Shown here one piece after another: positions 9,552-19,300 of a stretch of DNA of 64,000 nucleotides (position 1 is its first letter; each line of letters opens with the position of its first letter). The notes beneath the pieces are model-generated. The model saw only the letters and a list, made by a program, of their open reading frames with translations, had not been told where the DNA came from and ran no database searches. The DNA lies in NCBI GenBank assembly GCA_902780865.1, contig CACZHC010000011.1, forward strand, positions 2,898 to 66,897, written 5' to 3'. The DNA is from an uncultured bacterium. Lineage in GTDB: Bacteria > Verrucomicrobiota > Kiritimatiellia > RFP12 > UBA1067. Made by a program: the position numbers and the translations under genes.

Positions 9552-9619
9552 CTTACCCCTTTCCCCCTTTCGGAGTTGTTTGACAGAAGGCATAACCCCC
9601 AGTCTGTTTTACCTTGAAT

Positions 9620-9648
9620 AAAATACCACATAGCACGTTGAAAGTCAA
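9620..9648 (-). promoter_or_regulatory. sigma70-like promoter for the LamG/GH operon
   Basis: On the minus strand: TTGACT (9648-9643), a 17-nt spacer, then TATTTT (9625-9620). Confidence 0.45.
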
Positions 9649-9702
9649 TGGGCGCATCACCCAGGAACGCCTCGCCGAAAATATGTCTGCGCTTCGCTTT
9701 CA

Positions 9703-10734
9703 TCAGTCGTTGAGAGGGCTGAACGGGTCTTCGTCGGTCTCGACGCGTCCCTCCCTGTCCTCCATGCGGCCTATGTATTCCTTGGCGATGTCAGCCGGAA
9801 TCTCATACGGCTTGGTGTGATCGATCTTCCACTGCTTCCATCCCGGCTTGCGGAACGGATTGCGGAATGTCTTGGTGAGCTTGTTGCGCTGCTCGAGGTG
9901 AACCATGCAGGCACGGATGCATCCACACGCGCCCTCCACGGCGCGGCCATATCCGTACTGCCTCGGGAAGTCGCCCTCGAACGGCGACAGCGACTTGTCG
10001 GCTCCGCCGTGTATTCCCTCCTCGCAGGCAAGTTCGTCCAGCTTGCCCCACTCGATCTCGTGGCCGCATACCGTGACCTTGACGGACTCCGTCATCGATA
10101 TCGCGTGCCCCGCGCAGTTTCTGACGCAAAGTTTGCAGCGGTCACAGATGTGGCCTTCGTAAATTGGGTCGTATTCGTCAAATTCCGCATCGGTGAACAG
10201 CATCGCGAAGCGGACGCGCGGCCCGAACTCCGGCGTGAGGAACATCTTCGACCAGCCGAACTCTCCGAGCCCCGCGAGATACGCCGCCATGCGGAAGTGC
10301 ACAAGCACGTCGGGCGCAGGGCGACCCTCCGCGACATGGCGGCTGAGTCCGGCGCGAAACTTGCCTGTCACCGGGTTCACCGCATCGCCGCCGTTCGCGT
10401 TCTGCAGCGGAAACACCTCGTATCCGCGCTCTTCGAGATAGCGGTTCAGCTTCCAGAGTACCATGGGGCCGTGCACCTGGTTGAGCGACGCATAGCCCAT
10501 GCCGGGATAGTCGAGAAACCTCGTTCCCTCCTCGATGCCGCGGAGAAGTCCACGCGGGATGCGGAAGCCGAAGACTATCATCGACTTCGCGCCCGGGAAA
10601 ATGTAGCGCGGGTCGTTCTGCTTCGGCGCACCCTCCCAGCGGCTCATCGGCGCAATGCCGACGCAGTCCGCGCCGACCCTTTTCGCCAGCGCTTTTATCT
10701 CGGCGCTCGTGACATCTGGGAAATTCTCGGTCAC
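9703..10734 (-). CDS. QueG/reductive-dehalogenase-superfamily Fe-S protein, paralog B
   Basis: This is the C-terminal 343 aa of the 608-aa track ORF. The GTG start at 10734-10732 overlaps the TGA stop of paralog A (GTGA). It aligns residue-for-residue with paralog A from the N-terminus (VTENFPDVTSAEIKALAKRVGADCVGIAP vs MSYEKELTAAEVKAKAKECGADIVGIAP). Shared motifs are AGLGEFG, CDRCKLCVRNC and GACGCIRACMVHLE. Confidence 0.7.
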   Translation of the reverse strand: MTENFPDVTSAEIKALAKRVGADCVGIAPMSRWEGAPKQNDPRYIFPGAKSMIVFGFRIPRGLLRGIEEGTRFLDYPGMGYASLNQVHGPMVLWKLNRYLEERGYEVFPLQNANGGDAVNPVTGKFRAGLSRHVAEGRPAPDVLVHFRMAAYLAGLGEFGWSKMFLTPEFGPRVRFAMLFTDAEFDEYDPIYEGHICDRCKLCVRNCAGHAISMTESVKVTVCGHEIEWGKLDELACEEGIHGGADKSLSPFEGDFPRQYGYGRAVEGACGCIRACMVHLEQRNKLTKTFRNPFRKPGWKQWKIDHTKPYEIPADIAKEYIGRMEDREGRVETDEDPFSPLND

Positions 10735-11807
10735 GCCACGCCTCCGCTGGACGAGTTGTCCTGAACAAGCCCCGCCGCGGCCTTCGTACCGTAGTTGGAC
10801 TTGATGTTGTAGTTCGTGTAGGCGTCGTGCGACTCGATGTTGCCCTCGTATTCCCTGAGCGTGTCCGCCGGAATCTCGTATGGCTTGGAGTGGTCGATCT
10901 CCCACTGCTGCCAGCCCTCCTTGCGGAAGGGATTGCGAAATCCGTGAGTCATCTTGGCACGACGCTCCAGGTGGACCATGCAGGCGCGGATGCAGCCGCA
11001 GCTGCCTTCGTGCGCGAGGCCGTAGCCGTACTTGCGCGGATAGTTGCCGTCGAAAGGCGAAAGCTCGCGGTTGAGCCCGCCCTCGCGGAAGGCCTTGGAG
11101 CAGGCCATTTCGTCGCGCTTGGCCCATTCGACCTCCACACCGCATATCGTCTTCTTCACGGTCTCCGTAGGCGAGATGCACTTGCCGTGGCAGTTTTTGA
11201 CGCACTCCATGCAGCGGTCGCAGATCTTTCCGACGTAGATCGGATCGGGATCCAGCTCCGCGTCCGTCAGCATTATCGCAAAACGCTGGCGGGGGCCGAA
11301 TTCCGGCGTCAGAAAGGCCCGGGAATAGCCGAACTCGCCAAGTCCGGCGAGAAACGCCGCCATGCGGAAATCGACCGCAACGTCGGGCGCGGGAAGCCCT
11401 GGGCGGACGGGACGACTCCAGCCCTTGCGGAAGTTGCCCGTGAGGGGGTTGACGGCTTCGCCGCCGCCGACGTTCGCCATTGGCACGGCCTCGTAGCCGT
11501 GATCTTCCATGAAGCGGTTCATCTCCCACAGGACCATCGGCCCGTAGATGGAGTTGAGCGCGGCATATCCCATTGTCGCGTAGTTGAGGTAGTGCGTGCC
11601 TTCTTCAACGCCGCGCAGCGAGCCGCGCGGGATGCGGAAACCAAAGACGATCATCGACTTCGCGTCAGGGAAGATGTAGCGTGGGTCGTGTTGCTTGTCC
11701 GCCACACCTTCCCAGCGGGTCATAGGAGCGATGCCGACAATATCGGCGCCGCATTCCTTCGCCTTGGCCTTGACCTCTGCCGCTGTCAGTTCTTTTTCGT
11801 AGGACAT
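10731..11807 (-). CDS. QueG/reductive-dehalogenase-superfamily Fe-S protein, paralog A
   Basis: 358-aa ORF. It has a QueG-like N-terminus (KECGADIVGIAP), FLAGLGEFGYSRAFLTPEFGPRQRF, a CxxCxxCxxxC motif (CDRCMECVKNC) and GSCGCIRAC. It has no signal or TAT motif. Confidence 0.7.
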   Translation of the reverse strand: MSYEKELTAAEVKAKAKECGADIVGIAPMTRWEGVADKQHDPRYIFPDAKSMIVFGFRIPRGSLRGVEEGTHYLNYATMGYAALNSIYGPMVLWEMNRFMEDHGYEAVPMANVGGGEAVNPLTGNFRKGWSRPVRPGLPAPDVAVDFRMAAFLAGLGEFGYSRAFLTPEFGPRQRFAIMLTDAELDPDPIYVGKICDRCMECVKNCHGKCISPTETVKKTICGVEVEWAKRDEMACSKAFREGGLNRELSPFDGNYPRKYGYGLAHEGSCGCIRACMVHLERRAKMTHGFRNPFRKEGWQQWEIDHSKPYEIPADTLREYEGNIESHDAYTNYNIKSNYGTKAAAGLVQDNSSSGGVA

Positions 11808-11827
11808 AATAGTTTAAAGTTGAAAGT

Positions 11828-13564
11828 TTAAAGTTGACAGTCGCCTGTGGACTTGTGGTTGAGACGGTGCAAGATTGGAATCAGCAGGAGCCCCGAGGCG
11901 ACGGACACGATCGTCATCACCGCGGCAAACGCGATGCGGCCGTATATCCAGTATCCGCCCGCGAACATGAGCGAATAGATGGCGGCGCATGAAACCGTCA
12001 TAGCCAGCATTCCCCAAGCGATGTCGTGCCCGCTGGCACGGATCTTGTTCTGGAACGCCGCGCGCTTCGCAGCCTCGGTCGGCGGCGTGAGGAGTGTCAC
12101 GCCGACCCATGCAGCCGTCGTGACGGACATCACGATCAGGAGCCGGTGCCAGACCGCCAGCTCAGGTCCGCCGAGATGCGGATAGACAAGCTGAAGGAAT
12201 ACGGCCACCGCGAACGAGACGGCCATCGCCGTGATCTCGCTCCATGCGTTGATGCGCATCCAGAACCAACGGAGCAGGTAGATAAGCCCCGTGCCCGCGC
12301 CGATCTGCAAAATCAGGTTGAAGACCGCGCCAGCCGAAATGAGGAACGGGGAGATTATGGCGGTGAGCGCCATCAGGACGACGACGGTCACGCGTCCGAC
12401 GACGATGAGCTCGCGCTCTTCGGCCTCCGGGCGGACGAAGCGCTTCCAGAAGTCATTGGCGATGTAGTTTGACCCCATGGAAAGATGCGCCGCCACCGTG
12501 GAGAAGAGAGCGCCCATCATGGACGCCGCGACGACTCCAAGCCAGCCGTTCGGCACGAACGTAAGCATCGCGGGATAGGCGAGATCGCCCTTGACGAGCG
12601 CGGGATTGACGTTCGGGAACGCCTTCTGGAGAGATGCAAGGTCGGGGAACACGATGAGCGAAGCGAACGCGGTTAGGTACCACGGCCACGGGCGGATCGC
12701 GTAGTTGATGACCTGGTACAGTATCGAGCCGCCGACACAATGCCCCTCGCTCTTCGCGGAAAGCATGCGCTGGACGATATAGCCGCCGCCGCCCGGCTCG
12801 GAACCTGGATACCACACGTTCCACCACTGGATCGCGACCGGAATCACGAACACGGCGACGAAAAGATCGGCGTTGGACGGATCGGGAAAGAACGACAGAT
12901 GGCTCTGCACGACGGGGTTCGACATCATCGCAGAGAATCCGCCGACTGCAGGATGGTTCACGGCGTAGTACATGCCCACGACCGCCCCGACCATTATGAC
13001 GACGAAGAGGAAGAAGTCCGTGTATATCGCGCCGCGGAATCCGCCCACGGCGGAATACACTATCGACGCGACGGCCGTGACTGCGACGACCGTCCACTGC
13101 CCGACGCCGAAAAGCGTCTGGCCTATCTTTATCGCCGCCAGCATCACGAGCCCCGTCGTTATCACGTTGAACACCAGCCCGAGATATATGGCGCGGAAGC
13201 CGCGCAGGAACGCGGCGGCCCTGCCCGAGTAGCGAAGCTCGTAGAACTCGATGTCGCTCTTGGCGCCGGAGCGCACCCACAGCTTGGAATAGACGAACAC
13301 CGTGAGCATGCCTGTGAGGAGAAACGCCCACCACTTCCAGTTCTCTCCAAGCGAGGAGTTGCGAATGAATTCGGTGAACATGTTCGCGGAGTTCGTCGAG
13401 GTCGATGCCGCGCACATGGAGACGCCGATTAGCCACCACGGCATCGAGCGCCCAGAGAGGAAGAAGTCCTTGGCGTCCTTGCTCGCATGGCGCGAGCACG
13501 CCGCCGCGATGCCGAAAAGGGCCGCGAAGAATAGCCCTATGGCAAGGAAGTCCAGACTGTCCAT
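11828..13564 (-). CDS. sodium:solute symporter (SSS/SLC5) family transporter
   Basis: Polytopic hydrophobic ORF. The track start at 13576 is GTG. I prefer ATG at 13564 (MDSLDFLAIGLFFAALFGIAA). The sequence is typical of the SSS family (...SGRSMPWWLIGVSM..., GGGYIVQRMLSAKSE). Confidence 0.75.
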   Translation of the reverse strand: MDSLDFLAIGLFFAALFGIAAACSRHASKDAKDFFLSGRSMPWWLIGVSMCAASTSTNSANMFTEFIRNSSLGENWKWWAFLLTGMLTVFVYSKLWVRSGAKSDIEFYELRYSGRAAAFLRGFRAIYLGLVFNVITTGLVMLAAIKIGQTLFGVGQWTVVAVTAVASIVYSAVGGFRGAIYTDFFLFVVIMVGAVVGMYYAVNHPAVGGFSAMMSNPVVQSHLSFFPDPSNADLFVAVFVIPVAIQWWNVWYPGSEPGGGGYIVQRMLSAKSEGHCVGGSILYQVINYAIRPWPWYLTAFASLIVFPDLASLQKAFPNVNPALVKGDLAYPAMLTFVPNGWLGVVAASMMGALFSTVAAHLSMGSNYIANDFWKRFVRPEAEERELIVVGRVTVVVLMALTAIISPFLISAGAVFNLILQIGAGTGLIYLLRWFWMRINAWSEITAMAVSFAVAVFLQLVYPHLGGPELAVWHRLLIVMSVTTAAWVGVTLLTPPTEAAKRAAFQNKIRASGHDIAWGMLAMTVSCAAIYSLMFAGGYWIYGRIAFAAVMTIVSVASGLLLIPILHRLNHKSTGDCQL

Positions 13565-13676
13565 GTGCACCCTCACGCGGACATTTTACAAAACGCACCC
13601 GTCCGCGGCAACAAATAAACGCGAAAAAGAATATAAACAAATGCGAAACGCGGCTCATGCGCCGCGGATATATTTA

Positions 13677-13685
13677 TGGTATAAT
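13677..13685 (+). promoter_or_regulatory. extended -10 (TGGTATAAT) 6 nt upstream of the regulator ATG (leaderless-type)
   Basis: TGGTATAAT lies at 13677-13685 and the ATG at 13692. Confidence 0.5.
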
Positions 13686-13691
13686 TCCCGC

Positions 13692-14855
13692 ATGAAGGCG
13701 AAGGTCCTGATCATATTGCCGTCCGACAAGTTCCTGCACCGGCAGATACTTGAAGGCGTGCTCGCATATGGGCACGCGCACGGACCGTGGCAGTTCCATT
13801 TCGAGACCGGGAGCCGCTATGAACAGGGCCTTGCCAGGCTTCGCCGCTGGGGTTGCAGCGGCGTCATAGCGCTTGTTCGCGAGCGCCGGCAGATGAACCG
13901 CATCCTGGCGACGAAAACGCCTGCCGTTCTGATCAATCCGCCGACGCCACCCCACGGCACGGCGTCAAAACCGCCGAAACGCACGACTTTCATAGCTCGC
14001 GTACAGGAGGATGTCGGGAAATCCGCTGCGGAATATTTTCTAGACAGGGGCTTCCGCAGCTTTGCTTTTGTCGGGACACCCGAGCCGTCGGCCTGGTGCG
14101 AGCGTCGCCTAAAGGGAATGAGGAATCGACTCGCCGCAGCGGACCTTGAGTGCAACGCGTTCCCCGGGGCTCCAAAGGGCGAGCGCGAAGACTTTGACAG
14201 GGAGTCCGCCCATCTGGCCGAATGGCTGCGCTCGCTGAAACCGCAGACAGCCCTTTACGCCGCGTGGGACAGACGCGCGCTCCAGATCCTGAGCCTCTGC
14301 TCCGAACTCGACATCGCAGTTCCGGAATCGCTGTCCGTCCTCGGCACAGACAACGACGAGGTGCTTTGCGAATCGTCGACCCCGTCGCTTTCATCAATTG
14401 CGCTGGACGGGCGGAACGCCGGAATCCTCTGCGCAAAGCTGCTTGACGCGCACATGAACGGACGCAAGGCCGAACCGCTTGTCGACCTTGCGTTCCCGCG
14501 CATCGTGACAAGGCAATCAACCGACAAGACCGTGGTCCCTGACGCATACTTGGCAAAGGCGCTGGACATGGTGCGAAAAGACCTCTCGGTGGCCCGCACC
14601 ATCGACGACATTGCGAAGGAACTGCGCATATCGAAGCGTTCCCTCGAAATGAAGGCGAACCTTGTGCTTGGCAACACGCTGAAGAACGAGATAATCCGCA
14701 TACGGCTAAACGAGGCTGTGCGGCTTGTCTCGAACACGTCCCTGCCGCTGTCCGAAGTCGCCGAAAAATGCGGCTTCTGCTGCGCGAGCCACATGAACAC
14801 CCGATTCAAAGCCGCGTTCGGATATAGCCCGTCCGTTTTCCGTGCGCCTCCGTGA
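13692..14855 (+). CDS. XylR-like transcriptional regulator (periplasmic-binding-protein-like sensor + AraC-type HTH)
   Basis: The real start is MKAKVLIILPSDKFLHRQILEGVLAYG. The upstream 130 aa of the track ORF 13302..14855 are antisense to the symporter. The C-terminal AraC HTH is ...SLPLSEVAEKCGFCCASHMNTRFKAAFGYSPSVFR. Confidence 0.75.
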   Translation: MKAKVLIILPSDKFLHRQILEGVLAYGHAHGPWQFHFETGSRYEQGLARLRRWGCSGVIALVRERRQMNRILATKTPAVLINPPTPPHGTASKPPKRTTFIARVQEDVGKSAAEYFLDRGFRSFAFVGTPEPSAWCERRLKGMRNRLAAADLECNAFPGAPKGEREDFDRESAHLAEWLRSLKPQTALYAAWDRRALQILSLCSELDIAVPESLSVLGTDNDEVLCESSTPSLSSIALDGRNAGILCAKLLDAHMNGRKAEPLVDLAFPRIVTRQSTDKTVVPDAYLAKALDMVRKDLSVARTIDDIAKELRISKRSLEMKANLVLGNTLKNEIIRIRLNEAVRLVSNTSLPLSEVAEKCGFCCASHMNTRFKAAFGYSPSVFRAPP

Positions 14856-14906: not shown

Positions 14907-16022
14907 TCAGTCGCCCTCGAGCATCAGCTCGCGGAGACGCGCGATGTCCGCGTCGGTGAAGCCAGTCGACTTTACGTAGGACTCGATGCGTGCGTTAAGC
15001 GTGTCGCCCGGATATTTGTTCATCACTTCAAGGAGCGCGGCGTATGTGTTGTTGCGGTTGAACCAGTCGTGCTCGTCTTTCCAGAGAGCCGACGCCTCCC
15101 AGTCGCGCACAAGGTCCTCTGGCGACACGCCGAGGAGACCATTGATCAAGAAGGCAAGCGTACCAGTACGGTCCTGCCCGCTGCTGCAGTGGAAGAGAAG
15201 CGGAAGATTCTTCTCGTCACACACAAGCTCGAGCCCCTTCCTGCACGCCTCCTTCGCCCACGGCTCATCCATCTGCGAATAGCAGCCTGACGAAACCTCA
15301 ACACGTCGCACCGACGGCCCAAGAGGCGAACCGACGAGTCCAGCACATTCCTTTGGACTGCGCAAATCCAGCTCCGTGCAGATGCCAAGCGCATTTGTCA
15401 TGAAGTTTACGCCAGAATCGTCAAGACGCATGCGAGGCAGTTCACCGGGACACTCCGATGCATTCTCGCAAAGGTTCGCCGAGCGGTAGAGAAGACCCTG
15501 CTTCACACGCCGCCCGTCGGCAGTGCGCCAACCGCCAAGGTCGCGCACGTTCGGAACGCCAGGGACGCGGATAAGGCGCGGCGGACGGTCCTCGGTGAAA
15601 AATGAGCCTGTCGCCGAACCCTTCCCCGCGACGTCGACAGACCAGCGATAGCGGCAGCCGACCCTGAAGTTATCCCACTCGAACCGCCCAGTTGTGAGGT
15701 AGACAAAATTCGTGTCGCAGACACACACATCGTCATCCTCGCGCCAAATGCGGAAGTGAAGCCGCTCCTTTCGGGAGTTGATGCCAGTCCAGACGAAGAC
15801 GACAGGCTGAGGATACCACCCAAGCGCCAGGAGATCCGCACGATAGACTGCATCGCCCGCCTTTGACATGCGCTCCGCGTCTGAGGAGTCAAAAAACGAC
15901 TTTTGCCCCTCGCTCAGCAGCGGAACGGTCGCGCCTTCCGCCGGGAGCATCAGCTCGACGGCGGACGCGGCGCCGCAGACCGCGGCAACTGCCATGGCAA
16001 GAAGCGTCTTCATCGATGTCAT
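14907..16022 (-). CDS. secreted protein-tyrosine-phosphatase-like enzyme (Y_phosphatase3 type, CX5R)
   Basis: 371-aa ORF with a signal peptide. The active-site loop is HCSSGQDRTG. The start ATG overlaps the stop of the upstream gene (ATGA at 16022-16019). Confidence 0.65.
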   Translation of the reverse strand: MTSMKTLLAMAVAAVCGAASAVELMLPAEGATVPLLSEGQKSFFDSSDAERMSKAGDAVYRADLLALGWYPQPVVFVWTGINSRKERLHFRIWREDDDVCVCDTNFVYLTTGRFEWDNFRVGCRYRWSVDVAGKGSATGSFFTEDRPPRLIRVPGVPNVRDLGGWRTADGRRVKQGLLYRSANLCENASECPGELPRMRLDDSGVNFMTNALGICTELDLRSPKECAGLVGSPLGPSVRRVEVSSGCYSQMDEPWAKEACRKGLELVCDEKNLPLLFHCSSGQDRTGTLAFLINGLLGVSPEDLVRDWEASALWKDEHDWFNRNNTYAALLEVMNKYPGDTLNARIESYVKSTGFTDADIARLRELMLEGD

Positions 16023-19000
16023 TCCGCCGCGCCGATGCCGACGACAAAAAGCTGCGACTTGGACGTAGCGGCCTGAAGCTCGCCGAGCGCATCTGCGACA
16101 TCTGTGAGGGTGGCATTTAGAGTGAACGTCTCGGCGTCGTCAAGATTGTCCTTGCAGAGAAGGCCGAATGTCGAGCCGACGTTCGCGCCGATTTCCGCAG
16201 CACGGAATCCGACCGCGACCATGCCGCCCTCATACGCAATCGCTGTGAACGCGATGAACTTCCCGCCCTGTCCGTCGTCCAGTCCCTTAATGCCGCCGTT
16301 CGTGCCCGGGATGTCCCATTCGTCCGCAGGACGCGGACCGTATTCGCCGTACTCGTAGCATCCGATCGCCGGCTTCAGGTAGGAGAAGTACTTGCCGTCG
16401 AGGTCTTTTTCAAGACCGGCGTAGTCCGTGCCCGCCTCGATCGCAGGCGAAGTCGCGGCGAGATGGTAGTCGCCGTTCGCGGCATTGACAAAGAGCGGCG
16501 TTCCGCCGAAGAGGCAGGTCGTTGTCTTGGCCCCGACTGCGGAGGCGACTGTTGCGTCCTTGTACGCGACATCCGCATCGCCGGCCGTCGCGGCAGCTTC
16601 CGCCGTGTTGCCGGAGACGATGCAGTTCACGAGCGTCGTGTCGCCCTGGGCGATGTAGATTCCGCCGCCAAGCCCCGAGCCGACGACGCCATTGTTCGCA
16701 ACCGTCGTGTTGCGTATTACGGTCGTGAAGCTGTCGCTCGCGGCCACGCCCGTGACGGCGATGCCGCCGCCGTGGCTCGTGCGATCAGACGCGCCGGCCG
16801 TGTTGCCGTACACGAGGCAGGAGTCGATCTCGACGCTAAGCCCTGACCTTCCGCGGATGCCTATGCCGCCGCCAACTCCGTTGAGGAAGTCCGTTCCAGC
16901 GGAATTGCCCGCGACAATCGTGTGGTCGATCTTCACGCTGCCAGCGCCGCTCGCAAAGATGCCGCCGCCGCCATAGCTGCGCTTCGCATAGTTGTTCGTG
17001 ACGCAGCACCAGGAGACCGTGCCGTCGTCGATGTACACTCCGCCACCGGACTTGTCGTTGCCGTCGACCTTGCCTCCCGTGATGGCGACATGGCTGACGA
17101 CGCTTCCGTCCGCTATGTACGCCACGCGGTTGTCGCTTCCGGAGTTCGTTTTCGCGAAGCGAATCGTCGTGTTCGTCCAACCCTGGCCGACAAGCGTGAC
17201 GCCTCCAGTCACATTGAGCTGCGCGTCGATGTCGAAAAGACCGTTGCCAAGCGTGACGGTTCCCTGCGTCGGAACTGCGGCGTCGATTGCTTCCTGTATC
17301 GTCTGGCGCGTCTCGGCAGCCGTCTCGCCCGGCTGAATCCCCTCGCCCGGCTGCGGCGGAGTAATTACCTTGGGGATCGTAACGTCCTTCGTCTGGGTTG
17401 CGAACGGCGCGCCAGGGAATACAGCCGTGTAGCGCCCCGTGCCGGTCGCTTCGGTTGTCGCGGCCTGAACGACAGCGTAGGTCGCCGTGACTGTTTCGTT
17501 CGTCACATGCGCGGAATCGACGGTGCACGTCGCGCTTCCGGTGCACGTCGCGTTGTCGGCGGACCAGACGTACGACGCATCGCCCCAAGTATGGACGTGC
17601 GTTTCGGGACCGGGCTCAACAGGCTCGGCCCCGGTCGTAAAATTTCCGCTTTTCACCGCCCCCATCACGGTCTCGGCATTGTTGGAGATCGAAAGCGAAT
17701 AATAGTAAGTCGTCTCTGCCGTCAGGTTGGAAATGGCATAGTTGAACGAAGCCGTCGCGTCCTCGGCGATCTTCGTTGCCACGCCGAGAGTATTTGCACT
17801 CGCGCCGAGCGCGAGATAGACATCGCACGCGGTCGCGCCGGAGCCAAGCGAAGAGATCGTGCCGGAGATCGTCGCGTTCGTGACCGCCGGCGTAACGGTG
17901 ACCGTGCCGAGGACAGGCGACGTCTGAACGGGCTGAGCGCTGGATGAGGCCGTGCGGATGTTGTAGTCGTGGAGCTGCACGACGGGGTCCTCGTGAGGAT
18001 TGGGATAGGTGCCGCTCCACCCGCCGAGACGGACCTCGCGAAGCTTGTTGCTGTCCGTGTCGATAACGAAGATGCTGAAGTGGTAGGCGGCTTCCGTTCC
18101 GAGTTCGTGGCTCTTCGGCTTGCTCGGACAGTTCACGGCGTACGCGCTCGCGACGGATATTGCTGAAGCCCAGACCGCATTGCCAGGATTTGCGTCCTGA
18201 TCGGCCTTTGACGCGATTTCCTTCTCGTTCGTGAAATGGAAGTGCGCGGCGACGAGCCCGAAGAATCCCATGCCCTTGTGCGTGCCGAGGTTCCAGGGCT
18301 CATCGTGGCTCCCAGGGTTCGTGTAGCCGTTTATGTACCCGCACTGAAGGTCGGCGGCGGCGCCGCGTCCCGAGGAACCGCTAACCTTTTCCTCCGCACC
18401 GTGCGCGACCATGCCCATGACGGTGTTCTCCGGTGTGAGCGCTGGGTCGATGAGATTGCCGGATGCGTCGTAGAACTGCGCCGCGTCGTAGGCGCGGTAT
18501 TCGGACTTGCCGCCCGTCGCGCTGTCATAGAGGCTCACGCAGGCGATGCGCACGTTGGGGCCGCCGGACGCAAGAAGGCGACGGAAGTCGAGGTGGTAGG
18601 AGTTGCCGGTGAAATGTCCGGTTGTGCTGCCGAGCTTCGCGTTCGGAAGATCGCGATGGTAGGTGATGTCCACTCCCTGCAAATGCGCAGCGGCGGCAGA
18701 CGTGTTGAAGTTCGTCTGGACGTACGCCCACGCCTCGTCCGACATGTGCATATTCGCGCCGTTGAGCGAATAGTTGCGCTCGTGGTTGCCATCGATCGTG
18801 AAGAGCGGAACGCTCGCGGGGAGGTGCTGGTCAAACATCGCCTTCACGTTCCAGATTTCGTTGGTATATTCGGCTTCCGTGAGGCCGCGGTCCTGTGCGC
18901 CGCCGTTGTAGATCGGCGCAGTCGACAGGTCGCCGCCGTTGATGACGGCATCTAGCCCGGCGTCGACCGCCACGGACCCGAGAAGCCGGATCGACTGCTC

Positions 19001-19270
19001 CGCCTCCGTGAGGCAGCTGGCCGAACCGTACCAGTAGGTCGTGACCGGGTTAGTCGCCGCGTCGTCGCCTGCAACGCGCTTGCACTTGTGGACGTCGGAG
19101 ATCATGGCAAACGAGATGTACTTGCGCTTGCCGGTCGCAGGATCGATCGGGTTCACCTGTTCGACTATCGTCATGATGTCCGACTTGAGTCCGGCCTCAA
19201 GCGTCGCGACATCGTCTCCGAAGGCCAGAAGCCCCGAAGTCAGCAGTACGGCAGAAACGAGTTTTTTCAT
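16019..19270 (-). CDS. large secreted metallophosphoesterase fused to Pmp-type (GGGI...N) beta-helix repeats
   Basis: The track ORF starts at 19276. The second ATG (19270, MKKLVSAVLL) is 6 nt after AAGGAG. Calcineurin-like motifs are present (ISDVHK, GGDLS, IDGNHE). The C-terminal half has repeated GGGIFASG/GGGIGIRG/GGGIAVTG/GGGIYIAQ ... GN(S/T)A units. Confidence 0.65.
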   Translation of the reverse strand: MKKLVSAVLLTSGLLAFGDDVATLEAGLKSDIMTIVEQVNPIDPATGKRKYISFAMISDVHKCKRVAGDDAATNPVTTYWYGSASCLTEAEQSIRLLGSVAVDAGLDAVINGGDLSTAPIYNGGAQDRGLTEAEYTNEIWNVKAMFDQHLPASVPLFTIDGNHERNYSLNGANMHMSDEAWAYVQTNFNTSAAAAHLQGVDITYHRDLPNAKLGSTTGHFTGNSYHLDFRRLLASGGPNVRIACVSLYDSATGGKSEYRAYDAAQFYDASGNLIDPALTPENTVMGMVAHGAEEKVSGSSGRGAAADLQCGYINGYTNPGSHDEPWNLGTHKGMGFFGLVAAHFHFTNEKEIASKADQDANPGNAVWASAISVASAYAVNCPSKPKSHELGTEAAYHFSIFVIDTDSNKLREVRLGGWSGTYPNPHEDPVVQLHDYNIRTASSSAQPVQTSPVLGTVTVTPAVTNATISGTISSLGSGATACDVYLALGASANTLGVATKIAEDATASFNYAISNLTAETTYYYSLSISNNAETVMGAVKSGNFTTGAEPVEPGPETHVHTWGDASYVWSADNATCTGSATCTVDSAHVTNETVTATYAVVQAATTEATGTGRYTAVFPGAPFATQTKDVTIPKVITPPQPGEGIQPGETAAETRQTIQEAIDAAVPTQGTVTLGNGLFDIDAQLNVTGGVTLVGQGWTNTTIRFAKTNSGSDNRVAYIADGSVVSHVAITGGKVDGNDKSGGGVYIDDGTVSWCCVTNNYAKRSYGGGGIFASGAGSVKIDHTIVAGNSAGTDFLNGVGGGIGIRGRSGLSVEIDSCLVYGNTAGASDRTSHGGGIAVTGVAASDSFTTVIRNTTVANNGVVGSGLGGGIYIAQGDTTLVNCIVSGNTAEAAATAGDADVAYKDATVASAVGAKTTTCLFGGTPLFVNAANGDYHLAATSPAIEAGTDYAGLEKDLDGKYFSYLKPAIGCYEYGEYGPRPADEWDIPGTNGGIKGLDDGQGGKFIAFTAIAYEGGMVAVGFRAAEIGANVGSTFGLLCKDNLDDAETFTLNATLTDVADALGELQAATSKSQLFVVGIGAAE

Positions 19271-19300
19271 TTGCATCTCCTTTTTTGTGGTGACGTCGAA

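Follow-up and report, generated by a model that had tools for sequence, protein, structure and literature searches.

The superfamily of cobalamin- and iron-sulfur (Fe-S)-dependent reductases has, to our knowledge, two known chemistries so far, organohalide reduction by the reductive dehalogenases (RdhA) and tRNA epoxyqueuosine reduction by QueG. Here we describe two tandem paralogues, A and B, encoded in a 64,000-nucleotide stretch of DNA from an uncultured Kiritimatiellia bacterium (the window; GenBank contig CACZHC010000011.1, positions 2,898–66,897, numbered below from its first letter). Protein A (10731–11807, minus strand; ATG start, 358 residues) and protein B (9703–10734, minus strand; GTG start at 10734–10732, 343 residues) follow a gene for an SGLT-like Na+/solute symporter (11828–13564, minus strand; alternative GTG start at 13576). 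On balance, we favor the reading that A and B, which have diverged under equal constraint, are paralogues from a large, uncharacterized clade of cobalamin/Fe-S reductases, encoded in a sugar-importing operon. This clade, hereafter the family, would be a third, large branch of the superfamily, spanning hundreds of species and lacking a Pfam domain. Its genes head monosaccharide-catabolic operons, usually together with a putative U32-type Fe-S protein, a context suggestive of an as yet undescribed step in the anaerobic use of sugars.

Results

Placement of A and B in the RdhA/QueG Superfamily

Pfam models returned nothing on A or B at E ≤ 1 except a weak Fer4_7 match and, on B, three chance-level matches (E 0.2–0.8); the RdhA model PF13486 gave no match at this threshold, and DUF1730 and Fer4_16 also gave none on either protein. 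Because Pfam supplied no domain, the superfamily placement was drawn from sub-threshold NCBIfam matches and from profile and fold searches of the Protein Data Bank (PDB). The RdhA model TIGR02486 scored 40.7 bits on A and 46.0 bits on B (cut-off 160.35), and the QueG model TIGR00276 scored 18.9 and 21.5 bits, respectively (cut-off 200). A family profile built from 88 sequences matched PceA in the PDB with E-values of 4.6e-15 and 1.6e-12, NpRdhA with 2.8e-9, and QueG (5D08) with 1.5e-4, i.e. RdhA about ten orders of magnitude better than QueG. The AlphaFold2 model of A is confident (pLDDT 89.8, pTM 0.88), and a Foldseek search with it returned exclusively PceA, NpRdhA, and QueG at ranks 1–46 (E 2e-9 to 2e-6), followed by MMACHC/CblC (E ~1e-3), such that all PDB structural neighbors at E < 1e-2 are corrinoid-binding proteins (PceA, NpRdhA, QueG, and CblC). 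The kinship of A and B to RdhA and QueG is well beyond chance (profile 4.6e-15, fold E 2e-9), in agreement with the superfamily assignment made in the original prediction; A and B are nevertheless distant relatives that are members of neither family. Their core is modeled as a corrinoid-binding variant of the nitroreductase-like fold with a ferredoxin-like insert.

The family is a "minimal core" clade, which begins at the GADxVGIAP motif and lacks a twin-arginine (TAT) leader, the RdhA N-terminal extension, a HEAT domain, and a fused reductase. The N termini of A and B read MSYEKELTAAEVK... and MTENFPDVTSAEIK..., with GADxVGIAP about 20 residues in, and neither contains an RR motif of the TAT type. 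Beyond residue 282, the A model has two short helices (314–319 and 329–338). At the window locus there is no space for an RdhB-like anchor open reading frame (ORF) between or after the genes, which are separated by 20 nt (symporter to A), overlap (A to B), and are followed by a 109-nt spacer (9594–9702). The absence of both TAT leader and RdhB had been noted in the original prediction, as had the motifs GAD(I/C)VGIAP, AGLGEFG, CDRCxxCVxNC, and G(S/A)CGCIRAC, all of which we found in the proteins.

HMMER alignment to PceA places the invariant Arg175 of the family ("FGPRxRF") on R305 within a strong segment, and Asn112 on N272 and Tyr88 on Y246 via a weak, 3.6-bit segment. In PceA, Tyr246, Asn272, and Arg305 make up the RdhA active site. 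The counterparts of Arg175 and Asn112 are conserved family-wide, as is that of Tyr88 except in the B and Bacteroidales clades. Protein A carries the family-typical residues Tyr88, Asn112, Trp130, and Arg175; B has the clade-specific His88 and Leu130, and both proteins keep every family-invariant residue.

Family Members in Sugar-Catabolic Loci

The family comprises 3,141 clusters at 90% identity (E ≤ 1e-3), none with a Pfam domain, and 3,998 representatives at 50% identity, and was found in 488 stretches in GTDB species representatives. Its members carry the automatic names "hypothetical," "ferredoxin," and "epoxyqueuosine reductase," the last from JGI pipelines. We found no publication that describes the family; an "epoxyqueuosine reductase"-like ORF has been mentioned next to a metagenomic beta-glucuronidase match (bioRxiv 10.1101/2022.04.25.489410), but its sequence is not given, so that its link to the family is unverifiable. 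The hosts degrade glycans anaerobically in rumen, gut, digesters, and sediments; they belong to Kiritimatiellia, Lentisphaeria (Victivallales, Oligosphaera ethanolica DSM 24202), Bacteroidales, Prolixibacteraceae, Spirochaetales, Planctomycetota, Clostridia, and Riflebacteria.

The neighborhoods of relatives were compared over 82 fetched loci (labeled with L-numbers). In rumen and gut Kiritimatiellia the order is symporter (SSF), A, B; in Bacteroidales it is family gene, a gene for a protein of ~340 residues, SSF, and SusC/SusD; in other Kiritimatiellia and Prolixibacteraceae, SSF and family gene; and on Firmicutes-type contigs, a CUT1 ABC transporter (solute-binding protein and two permeases), the family gene, and the ~340-residue gene. 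The family gene therefore adjoins transporters of two unrelated types (SSF and CUT1 ABC) across phyla, SSF being the adjoining type in rumen Kiritimatiellia, other Kiritimatiellia, Prolixibacteraceae, and Bacteroidales. Recurrent neighbors encode GHL6, DUF5696, glycoside hydrolases GH2/GH20, a CE15/AXE-like esterase, CBM9, SDR and GFO/IDH/MocA oxidoreductases, an enolase-superfamily enzyme, Amidohydro_2, an AraA-like isomerase, an FGGY kinase, a KpsF-type SIS isomerase, aldose-1-epimerase/DUF4432, and ROK proteins, with regulators of the LacI, GntR, IclR, and AraC types. The nine-gene Bacillota operon L081 encodes, in order, DUF4432 (mutarotase-like), the family protein, the ~340-residue protein, Amidohydro_2, an aldose isomerase, a xylulokinase-like kinase, a SIS isomerase, a YjbQ-like protein, and a TIM-like protein. 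The original prediction had put forward conservation of the neighborhood as a check; the linkage of transporter and family gene does recur across phyla.

Several genomes have multiple family copies (two to three loci each), which fits a catabolic rather than a housekeeping family. Single metagenome-assembled genomes (MAGs) with two or three loci are RUG11483 (L011 and L012), Eubacteriales STD1_189 (L039, L055, and L070), and one from Victivallales (L057 and L062), and one MAG has two complete SSF-A-B modules. In a Victivallales locus, a glycyl-radical enzyme and its radical-SAM activase (L083 12340–15414, minus strand) lie ~1.3 kb from a pair formed by the family gene and the ~340-residue gene.

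In the window, 9703–13564 (minus strand) reads as a three-gene operon of symporter, A, and B. The symporter matches SSF at 96.8 bits (cut-off 22.8; E 1.7e-27) and TIGR00813 at 1e-34, and its nearest solved relatives are vSGLT (4.6e-32) and SGLT1/2 (~1e-20). These matches place it in the sugar (SGLT) branch of PF00474, and sugar specificity is predicted. Sialic acid was rejected as the transported solute, SiaT (6.7e-7) being a far poorer match than the SGLTs. The divergent regulator (13692–14855, plus strand) was described in the original prediction as XylR/AraC-type and proves to combine a Peripla_BP_3 sugar-sensor domain (110.5 bits, 1.2e-31) with an AraC-type helix-turn-helix domain (HTH_18 62.6 bits, 4.3e-17; HTH_AraC 1.9e-6), Peripla_BP_3 and HTH_18 both scoring above cut-off; its match to PBP1_XylR is weak (17.3 bits, cut-off 27). 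Orthologues of the regulator (54–99% identity) are equally divergent in L004, L006, L007, L014, L017, L018, and L027, and the operon is probably sugar-responsive and under control of this regulator. Almost certainly, what serves as substrate or product is a free monosaccharide of the aldose type, imported to the cytoplasm; a cytoplasmic enzyme acting on an imported small molecule had been proposed beforehand and agrees with the missing TAT leader and with the recurrent link to two transporter types. Sulfoquinovose was considered as a specific candidate and remains speculation: the GH31 gene in the window lies at a distance of 16 kb and has no conserved place in the neighborhood, and the AraA-like isomerase of L081 matches the SftI model weakly.

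A Conserved U32-like Partner

The ~340-residue gene comes next after the family gene in 45 of the 82 loci, and its own family, with 3,985 matches, equals that of A and B in size. Its product scores 12–19 bits with Peptidase_U32 (PF01136; cut-off 22.4), and no related sequence was found in the PDB, a profile search included. The AlphaFold2 model (pLDDT 91) matches the U32 protein Mk0906 (PDB 5D88; E 1.8e-9, TMt 0.70) five orders of magnitude ahead of generic TIM barrels (~1e-4). The invariant cysteines, C81...C176-x14-C191-x3-C195, resemble the 4Fe-4S ligand pattern of UbiV, CXnCX12CX3C (PMC6747719). On this modeling, the partner is predicted to be a divergent U32-fold Fe-S protein; U32 proteins are now viewed as Fe-S-dependent, O2-independent hydroxylases (PMC6747719; PMC11574389). 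Being absent from the window, this most conserved partner was missed in the original prediction. In Oligosphaera ethanolica DSM 24202, an Acido-Lenti-1 RNA motif (RF01687; L042 10357–10421, minus strand; 39.7 bits, gathering threshold 37) lies directly downstream of the partner gene.

In the closest relative, RUG12088 (L064 1021–4697), the partner gene lies directly past B, where ~3.6 kb stand in place of the 109-bp spacer of the window. This ~3.6-kb segment holds the U32-like partner, a Y_phosphatase3-like gene, and a 408-residue ORF. The spacer in the window looks like an indel that took out the usual partner. One lineage with a partner-less locus has the partner gene standing alone in another part of that contig, which means that the absence of the partner from the window says little about the rest of the genome.

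Evolution of the A/B Pair

A and B share 66% identity and 80% positives over 324 residues (E 7e-165), close to the two-thirds previously estimated by eye. The tandem occurs in 24 species-level loci, all in one rumen/gut Kiritimatiellia clade in which A identity falls to 70%; most other family members are single-copy, so that the pair is specific to this clade. At the A/B junction of the window (10731–10745, minus strand), a GGAGG (10745–10741) precedes the GTG start of B by a 6-nt spacer, and this start lies on the TGA stop of A (10733–10731) to form the GTGA overlap (10734–10731) that had been read from the sequence. Junctions in the 24 orthologous loci range from −4 to +66 nt. Co-transcription of A and B is thus conserved and the start/stop overlap is not, contrary to the strict 1:1 co-production that the overlap had suggested. 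Where A and B do not overlap, the 44–66-nt spacers are filled by purine-rich short tandem repeats (e.g. GAGTTGAGAGTTGGGAGTT, GGTGAAAGGTGAAAGGTGAAGG, and TTAGTGGTTAGTTGTTAG; L005 1365–1408, L007 4393–4443, L008 9078–9136, L010/L011 9075–9140, L013 7525–7575, L014 4732–4788, and L024 2642–2700), which might be Shine-Dalgarno-like re-initiation or expression-tuning elements.

In a neighbor-joining tree the A copies form one clade (Tyr88, Trp130) and the B copies another, which is sister to Bacteroidales genes. In the B clade, His88 predominates, with Gln or Tyr in the basal copies, and Leu130 is present in all but the basal ones. Because the Bacteroidales symporters (L003, L029–L031, L051, and L082) are 75–81% identical to that of the window, and B is sister to Bacteroidales genes, horizontal transfer of the module between Kiritimatiellia and Bacteroidales is implied. 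Both A and B are under strong purifying selection (dN/dS 0.03–0.13 for each) and, since all invariant residues are kept as well, both are predicted to be functional. We rejected the idea that B is a degenerate, non-catalytic copy, as it has all family-invariant residues and the same dN/dS as A. Positions 88 and 130 of the pocket, conserved elsewhere, differ between A and B, which makes it most likely that each protein acts on its own, related substrate or that the two catalyze successive steps.

A different interpretation, put forward in the original prediction, is that A and B are an obligate heterodimer, i.e. one enzyme with two non-equivalent active sites. We regard this as a serious contender that falls somewhat short of an even chance. 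Consistent with a heterodimer, every sampled A-clade gene with downstream sequence is adjoined by B, at a tight junction in the 24 loci, the two evolve at equal rates, a distant subfamily (~35% identity) is also tandem beside a U32-like gene (L020 and L050), more distant relatives include two- or three-module fusions, and dimers have precedents in PceA and in the UbiU-UbiV heterodimer (PMC6747719). However, the single-copy status of most members, including the Bacteroidales genes that are sister to B, indicates that the fold works unpaired; neither paralogue resembles a degenerate scaffold, all family-invariant residues being present in both; and the overlap varies as described. A and B may act as separate homo-oligomers or as a heterodimer, which is possible but which function does not require.

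The tandem genes of the distant subfamily lie at L020 1536–5335 and L050 209–3202; their U32-like genes are ~42% identical to the partner, and the Asn112 counterpart is replaced in one member of each pair. The natural fusions (P0134, P0137, P0154, and P0169, 730–810 residues; P0234, 550 residues) have two complete RdhA-like modules, each with CxxCxxCxxxCP, around a degenerate middle copy that lacks the Cys motifs.

Fe-S Ligands and the Use of Cobalamin

Seven cysteines are invariant in both the 88- and the 108-sequence sets (C196, C199, C202, C206, C236, C272, and C276). The original prediction of two Fe-S motifs stands for the first, which is complete (C196, C199, C202, and C206); the second departs from the canonical form by the loss of one canonical Cys. 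Because position 269 (the canonical Cys) is Ser, Ala, or Gly across the family and Cys270 is variable, the cluster expected from ferredoxin topology to lie nearer the corrin would have three conserved thiolates. It could be a 3Fe-4S cluster, or have a non-Cys ligand or an open iron site.

By analogy with the corrinoid-binding neighbors in fold, and in view of the active-site residues aligned to PceA and of the riboswitches beside one Bacteroidales operon (L003, see below), A and B likely use cobalamin (B12), and both its binding and the reductive step are inferred from homology. Several observations weigh against this assignment and against the sugar-reductase reading built on it. The TM-scores of the A model to RdhA and QueG are modest (0.37–0.45). 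The second motif, C236...x269-(C270)-x-C272-xxx-C276, shortens the canonical CxxCxxxC to (C)xCxxxC. Both A and B have Cys270, whereas many relatives have another residue there; the three-Cys cluster possibly implies a different chemistry. Cobalamin riboswitches, scanned for in 59 sources (~700 kb), were matched in two Bacteroidales loci alone, i.e. near 2 of ~75 distinct loci, too few for enrichment. No neighboring gene family marks one particular sugar modification. The partner gene was not found in the whole 64-kb window, and several relatives' A/B loci also lack it beside B.

Two of the riboswitches belong to the rumen Bacteroidales MAG locus L003 (5718–5890 and 6856–7057, minus strand; 93 and 102 bits), where they precede genes for a TonB-dependent receptor, a DUF5074 protein, and an IclR regulator that lie divergently beside the family-partner-SSF-SusC-SusD operon. 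A third is located 6 kb from the family gene in the Alistipes locus L030.

Discussion

Alternative Functions of A and B

The observations on the second cluster could instead be explained by an RdhA-like scaffold that works with Fe-S alone and without cobalamin, the free iron of the three-Cys cluster binding a sugar hydroxyl directly for a reductive dehydroxylation or a dehydration of the IspH or dehydratase type. The seven invariant cysteines, the Ser/Ala/Gly at the first position of the second motif, the frequent replacement of Cys270, the failure of all Pfam and NCBIfam models to reach their cut-offs, and the rarity of cobalamin riboswitches near family loci would all be accommodated. We nevertheless consider this unlikely, because the PDB neighbors at E < 1e-2 all bind corrinoids, the PceA-aligned Arg and Asn are conserved across the family (and the Tyr outside the B and Bacteroidales clades), and the L003 riboswitches and TonB receptor lie right by the operon. 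Moreover, some respiratory RdhAs are reported to carry one 3Fe-4S cluster yet are B12-dependent.

Less probable still is a role for A and B as redox partners or maturases of the U32-type oxidase or of another enzyme, in which they would shuttle electrons and leave the sugar untouched. The frequency with which the U32-like gene adjoins (45 of 82 loci) and the two ferredoxin-type cluster motifs in A and B are compatible with such a role, and the U32 oxidases have no known electron partner so far (PMC11574389). However, ~350 residues with a conserved RdhA-type pocket (Arg175, Asn112, and Tyr88) exceed what a ferredoxin needs, the SSF-A-B unit is kept without an adjoining U32 gene in the window and in several relatives, and the differences between the paralogues at pocket positions suggest contact with a substrate.

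It is very improbable that A and B are catabolic reductive dehalogenases of natural organohalogens in the style of NpRdhA/BhbA, although reductive dehalogenases are their best sequence and fold matches and both are, like NpRdhA, cytoplasmic. The TIGR02486 scores are far below the cut-off (41–46 versus 160 bits), there is neither a fused reductase nor a vestigial second B12 domain, and the transporter is SGLT-like. In anaerobes of rumen, gut, and digesters, family genes are consistently accompanied by those for sugar transporters, glycoside hydrolases, mutarotases, isomerases, and kinases, and no neighbors of aromatic or halo-organic catabolism were seen at family loci. Organohalide respiration, which the original prediction had already discounted, is disfavored by the same scores and by the missing TAT leader and RdhB gene. 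Least probable of all is that A and B reduce epoxyqueuosine in the manner of QueG, either on tRNA, which was also argued against originally, or on a salvaged free compound (epoxyqueuosine or epoxyqueuine): the JGI names of some members, the QueG-like N-terminal start, and the presence of QueG among the fold matches are outweighed by TIGR00276 scores of 19–21 versus 200 bits, the ~10-orders-better profile match to RdhA, two short helices past residue 282 where QueG has its C-terminal HEAT-like six-helix tRNA-binding bundle (Leu257–Leu385 in B. subtilis; PMC5175355), the tandem arrangement, several copies per genome, and a transporter and glycoside-hydrolase context.

A Proposed Reaction on Imported Sugars

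Returning to A and B as cobalamin/Fe-S reductases of a sugar-importing operon, a sequence of five steps can be envisaged. The symporter would bring in a modified free aldose. In the cytoplasm, a donor of the ferredoxin or flavodoxin type would reduce a base-off corrinoid to Co(I), with the two Fe-S clusters as intermediaries. Co(I) would attack the sugar derivative, and a substituent would be reductively eliminated by C–O or C–X cleavage, as in dehalogenation or epoxide reduction. The proton would come from Arg175 and Asn112, together with Tyr88 in A or His88 in B. The product, an ordinary aldose, would then enter catabolism through mutarotase, isomerase, and kinase, either directly or after a U32-type oxidase step; for the bacterium of the window, the O2-independent U32-type Fe-S oxidase partner would be encoded elsewhere in the genome, if at all.

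A considerably more doubtful extension is that the family represents a third reaction class of the RdhA/QueG superfamily, namely the Co(I)-dependent reductive removal of a non-hydrolyzable substituent (such as an O-methyl ether, a C-6 sulfonate, or a different C–O/C–X group) from a free monosaccharide. Together with the U32-type oxidase, it would constitute an anaerobic counterpart of the oxygenase-dependent sugar "de-decoration" of aerobes, with A and B serving two substrates or steps. If the function inferred for the family holds, a B12-dependent step would be added to anaerobic carbohydrate metabolism, part of the B12 demand of fiber-degrading communities would be explained, and the sugar-locus branch of the U32 family would gain a role. 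The question is amenable to direct testing, since Oligosphaera ethanolica DSM 24202 and Victivallis are carriers that have been cultured.

Other Features of the Window

All four genes of the locus were recovered by ORF scan at the positions previously given for them. The symporter operon and the regulator gene are separated by a 127-nt divergent intergenic control region (13565–13691), in which a consensus scan found a promoter-like site for the operon at 13611–13583 (minus strand; a weak pattern match). A terminator-like hairpin, likewise a weak pattern match, lies at 9649–9663 (minus strand), 40 nt past the stop codon of B, at the end of the three-gene unit and at the spot where close relatives have the U32-like partner gene. 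Nowhere in the window is there a third family copy, a further CxxCxxCxxxC protein, or another queG candidate.

Carbohydrate-active genes are abundant in the window (GH78-like rhamnosidase, GH39-like, LamG, GH31, CE4-like, and a heparinase/alginate-lyase-like gene with CBM6) and, with the sugar genes around the relatives, bear out the glycan setting ascribed to the locus in the original prediction. The housekeeping genes for PNPase and PheT are located in the same 64 kb. Among public DNA, that of rumen Kiritimatiellia MAGs comes closest, the B protein of RUG12088 being 98% identical. Beside the regulator are genes for a secreted Y_phosphatase3-family protein (14907–16022, minus strand) and a 1,085-residue, Metallophos-containing surface protein (16019–19276, minus strand); Y_phosphatase3 paralogues recur near the operon in the related rumen Kiritimatiellia loci L004, L008, L011, L026, and L064.

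Comparison with Known Systems

CblC/MMACHC (PDB 3SOM and 5UOS) comes next after RdhA and QueG in the fold search, and the modeled core of A and B corresponds to its B12-binding variant of the nitroreductase-like fold; in contrast to them, CblC is a trafficking and dealkylation enzyme without an Fe-S domain. The model of the partner protein matches a U32 protein, the group of UbiU-UbiV, RlhA, and TrhP, and its Cys pattern resembles that of UbiV, but most partners have an extra C-terminal CxxxCxxCxxC, and their genes are located in sugar loci rather than in quinone- or RNA-modification contexts.

In both sequence and fold, A and B are matched best by PceA/RdhA (S. multivorans, PDB 4UQU; Desulfitobacterium PceA2B2, PDB 8Q4H; TMq 0.42–0.45), with which they have in common the AGLGE...GP(R/N)xR strand and the first CxxCxxCxxxC. 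They lack the ~140-residue N-terminal region, the GADxVGIAP motif falling ~140 residues into mature PceA, and their second Fe-S motif is shortened relative to the CxxCxxxCP of RdhA. Unlike respiratory RdhAs, which are TAT-exported and accompanied by RdhB, A and B have neither feature and belong to a sugar-catabolic context. NpRdhA/BhbA (PDB 4RAS and 6ZXU) is closer in logic, being cytoplasmic, non-respiratory, and catabolic, and its profile match reaches the first Cys of the second cluster motif (C236 in the family). However, NpRdhA spans ~700 residues and includes both a second, vestigial B12 domain and an NAD(P)H-ferredoxin reductase fused to the rest, compared with 358 and 343 residues for A and B; residues 451–575 alone of the 4RAS/6ZXU chains align to the family; a Lys replaces Arg175; and the substrates are halophenolic acids. 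The "RdhA-like" classes defined in the literature are a different group, as they require the canonical CXXCXXXCP and closely resemble NpRdhA in fold (TM 0.92–0.95; PMC12219181).

QueG (B. subtilis, PDB 5D08; S. thermophilus, PDB 5D6S) combines the base-off-cobalamin fold with two 4Fe-4S clusters. It differs from the family in its HEAT-like tRNA domain, whereas family genes are multicopy per genome and located in transporter and glycoside-hydrolase loci. QueG is similar to A and B with respect to size and to the start at G-x-D-x-x-G-I, and its chemistry provides the best precedent for acting on a sugar, the C–O bond that it cleaves being part of a cyclic, polyol-like ring system.

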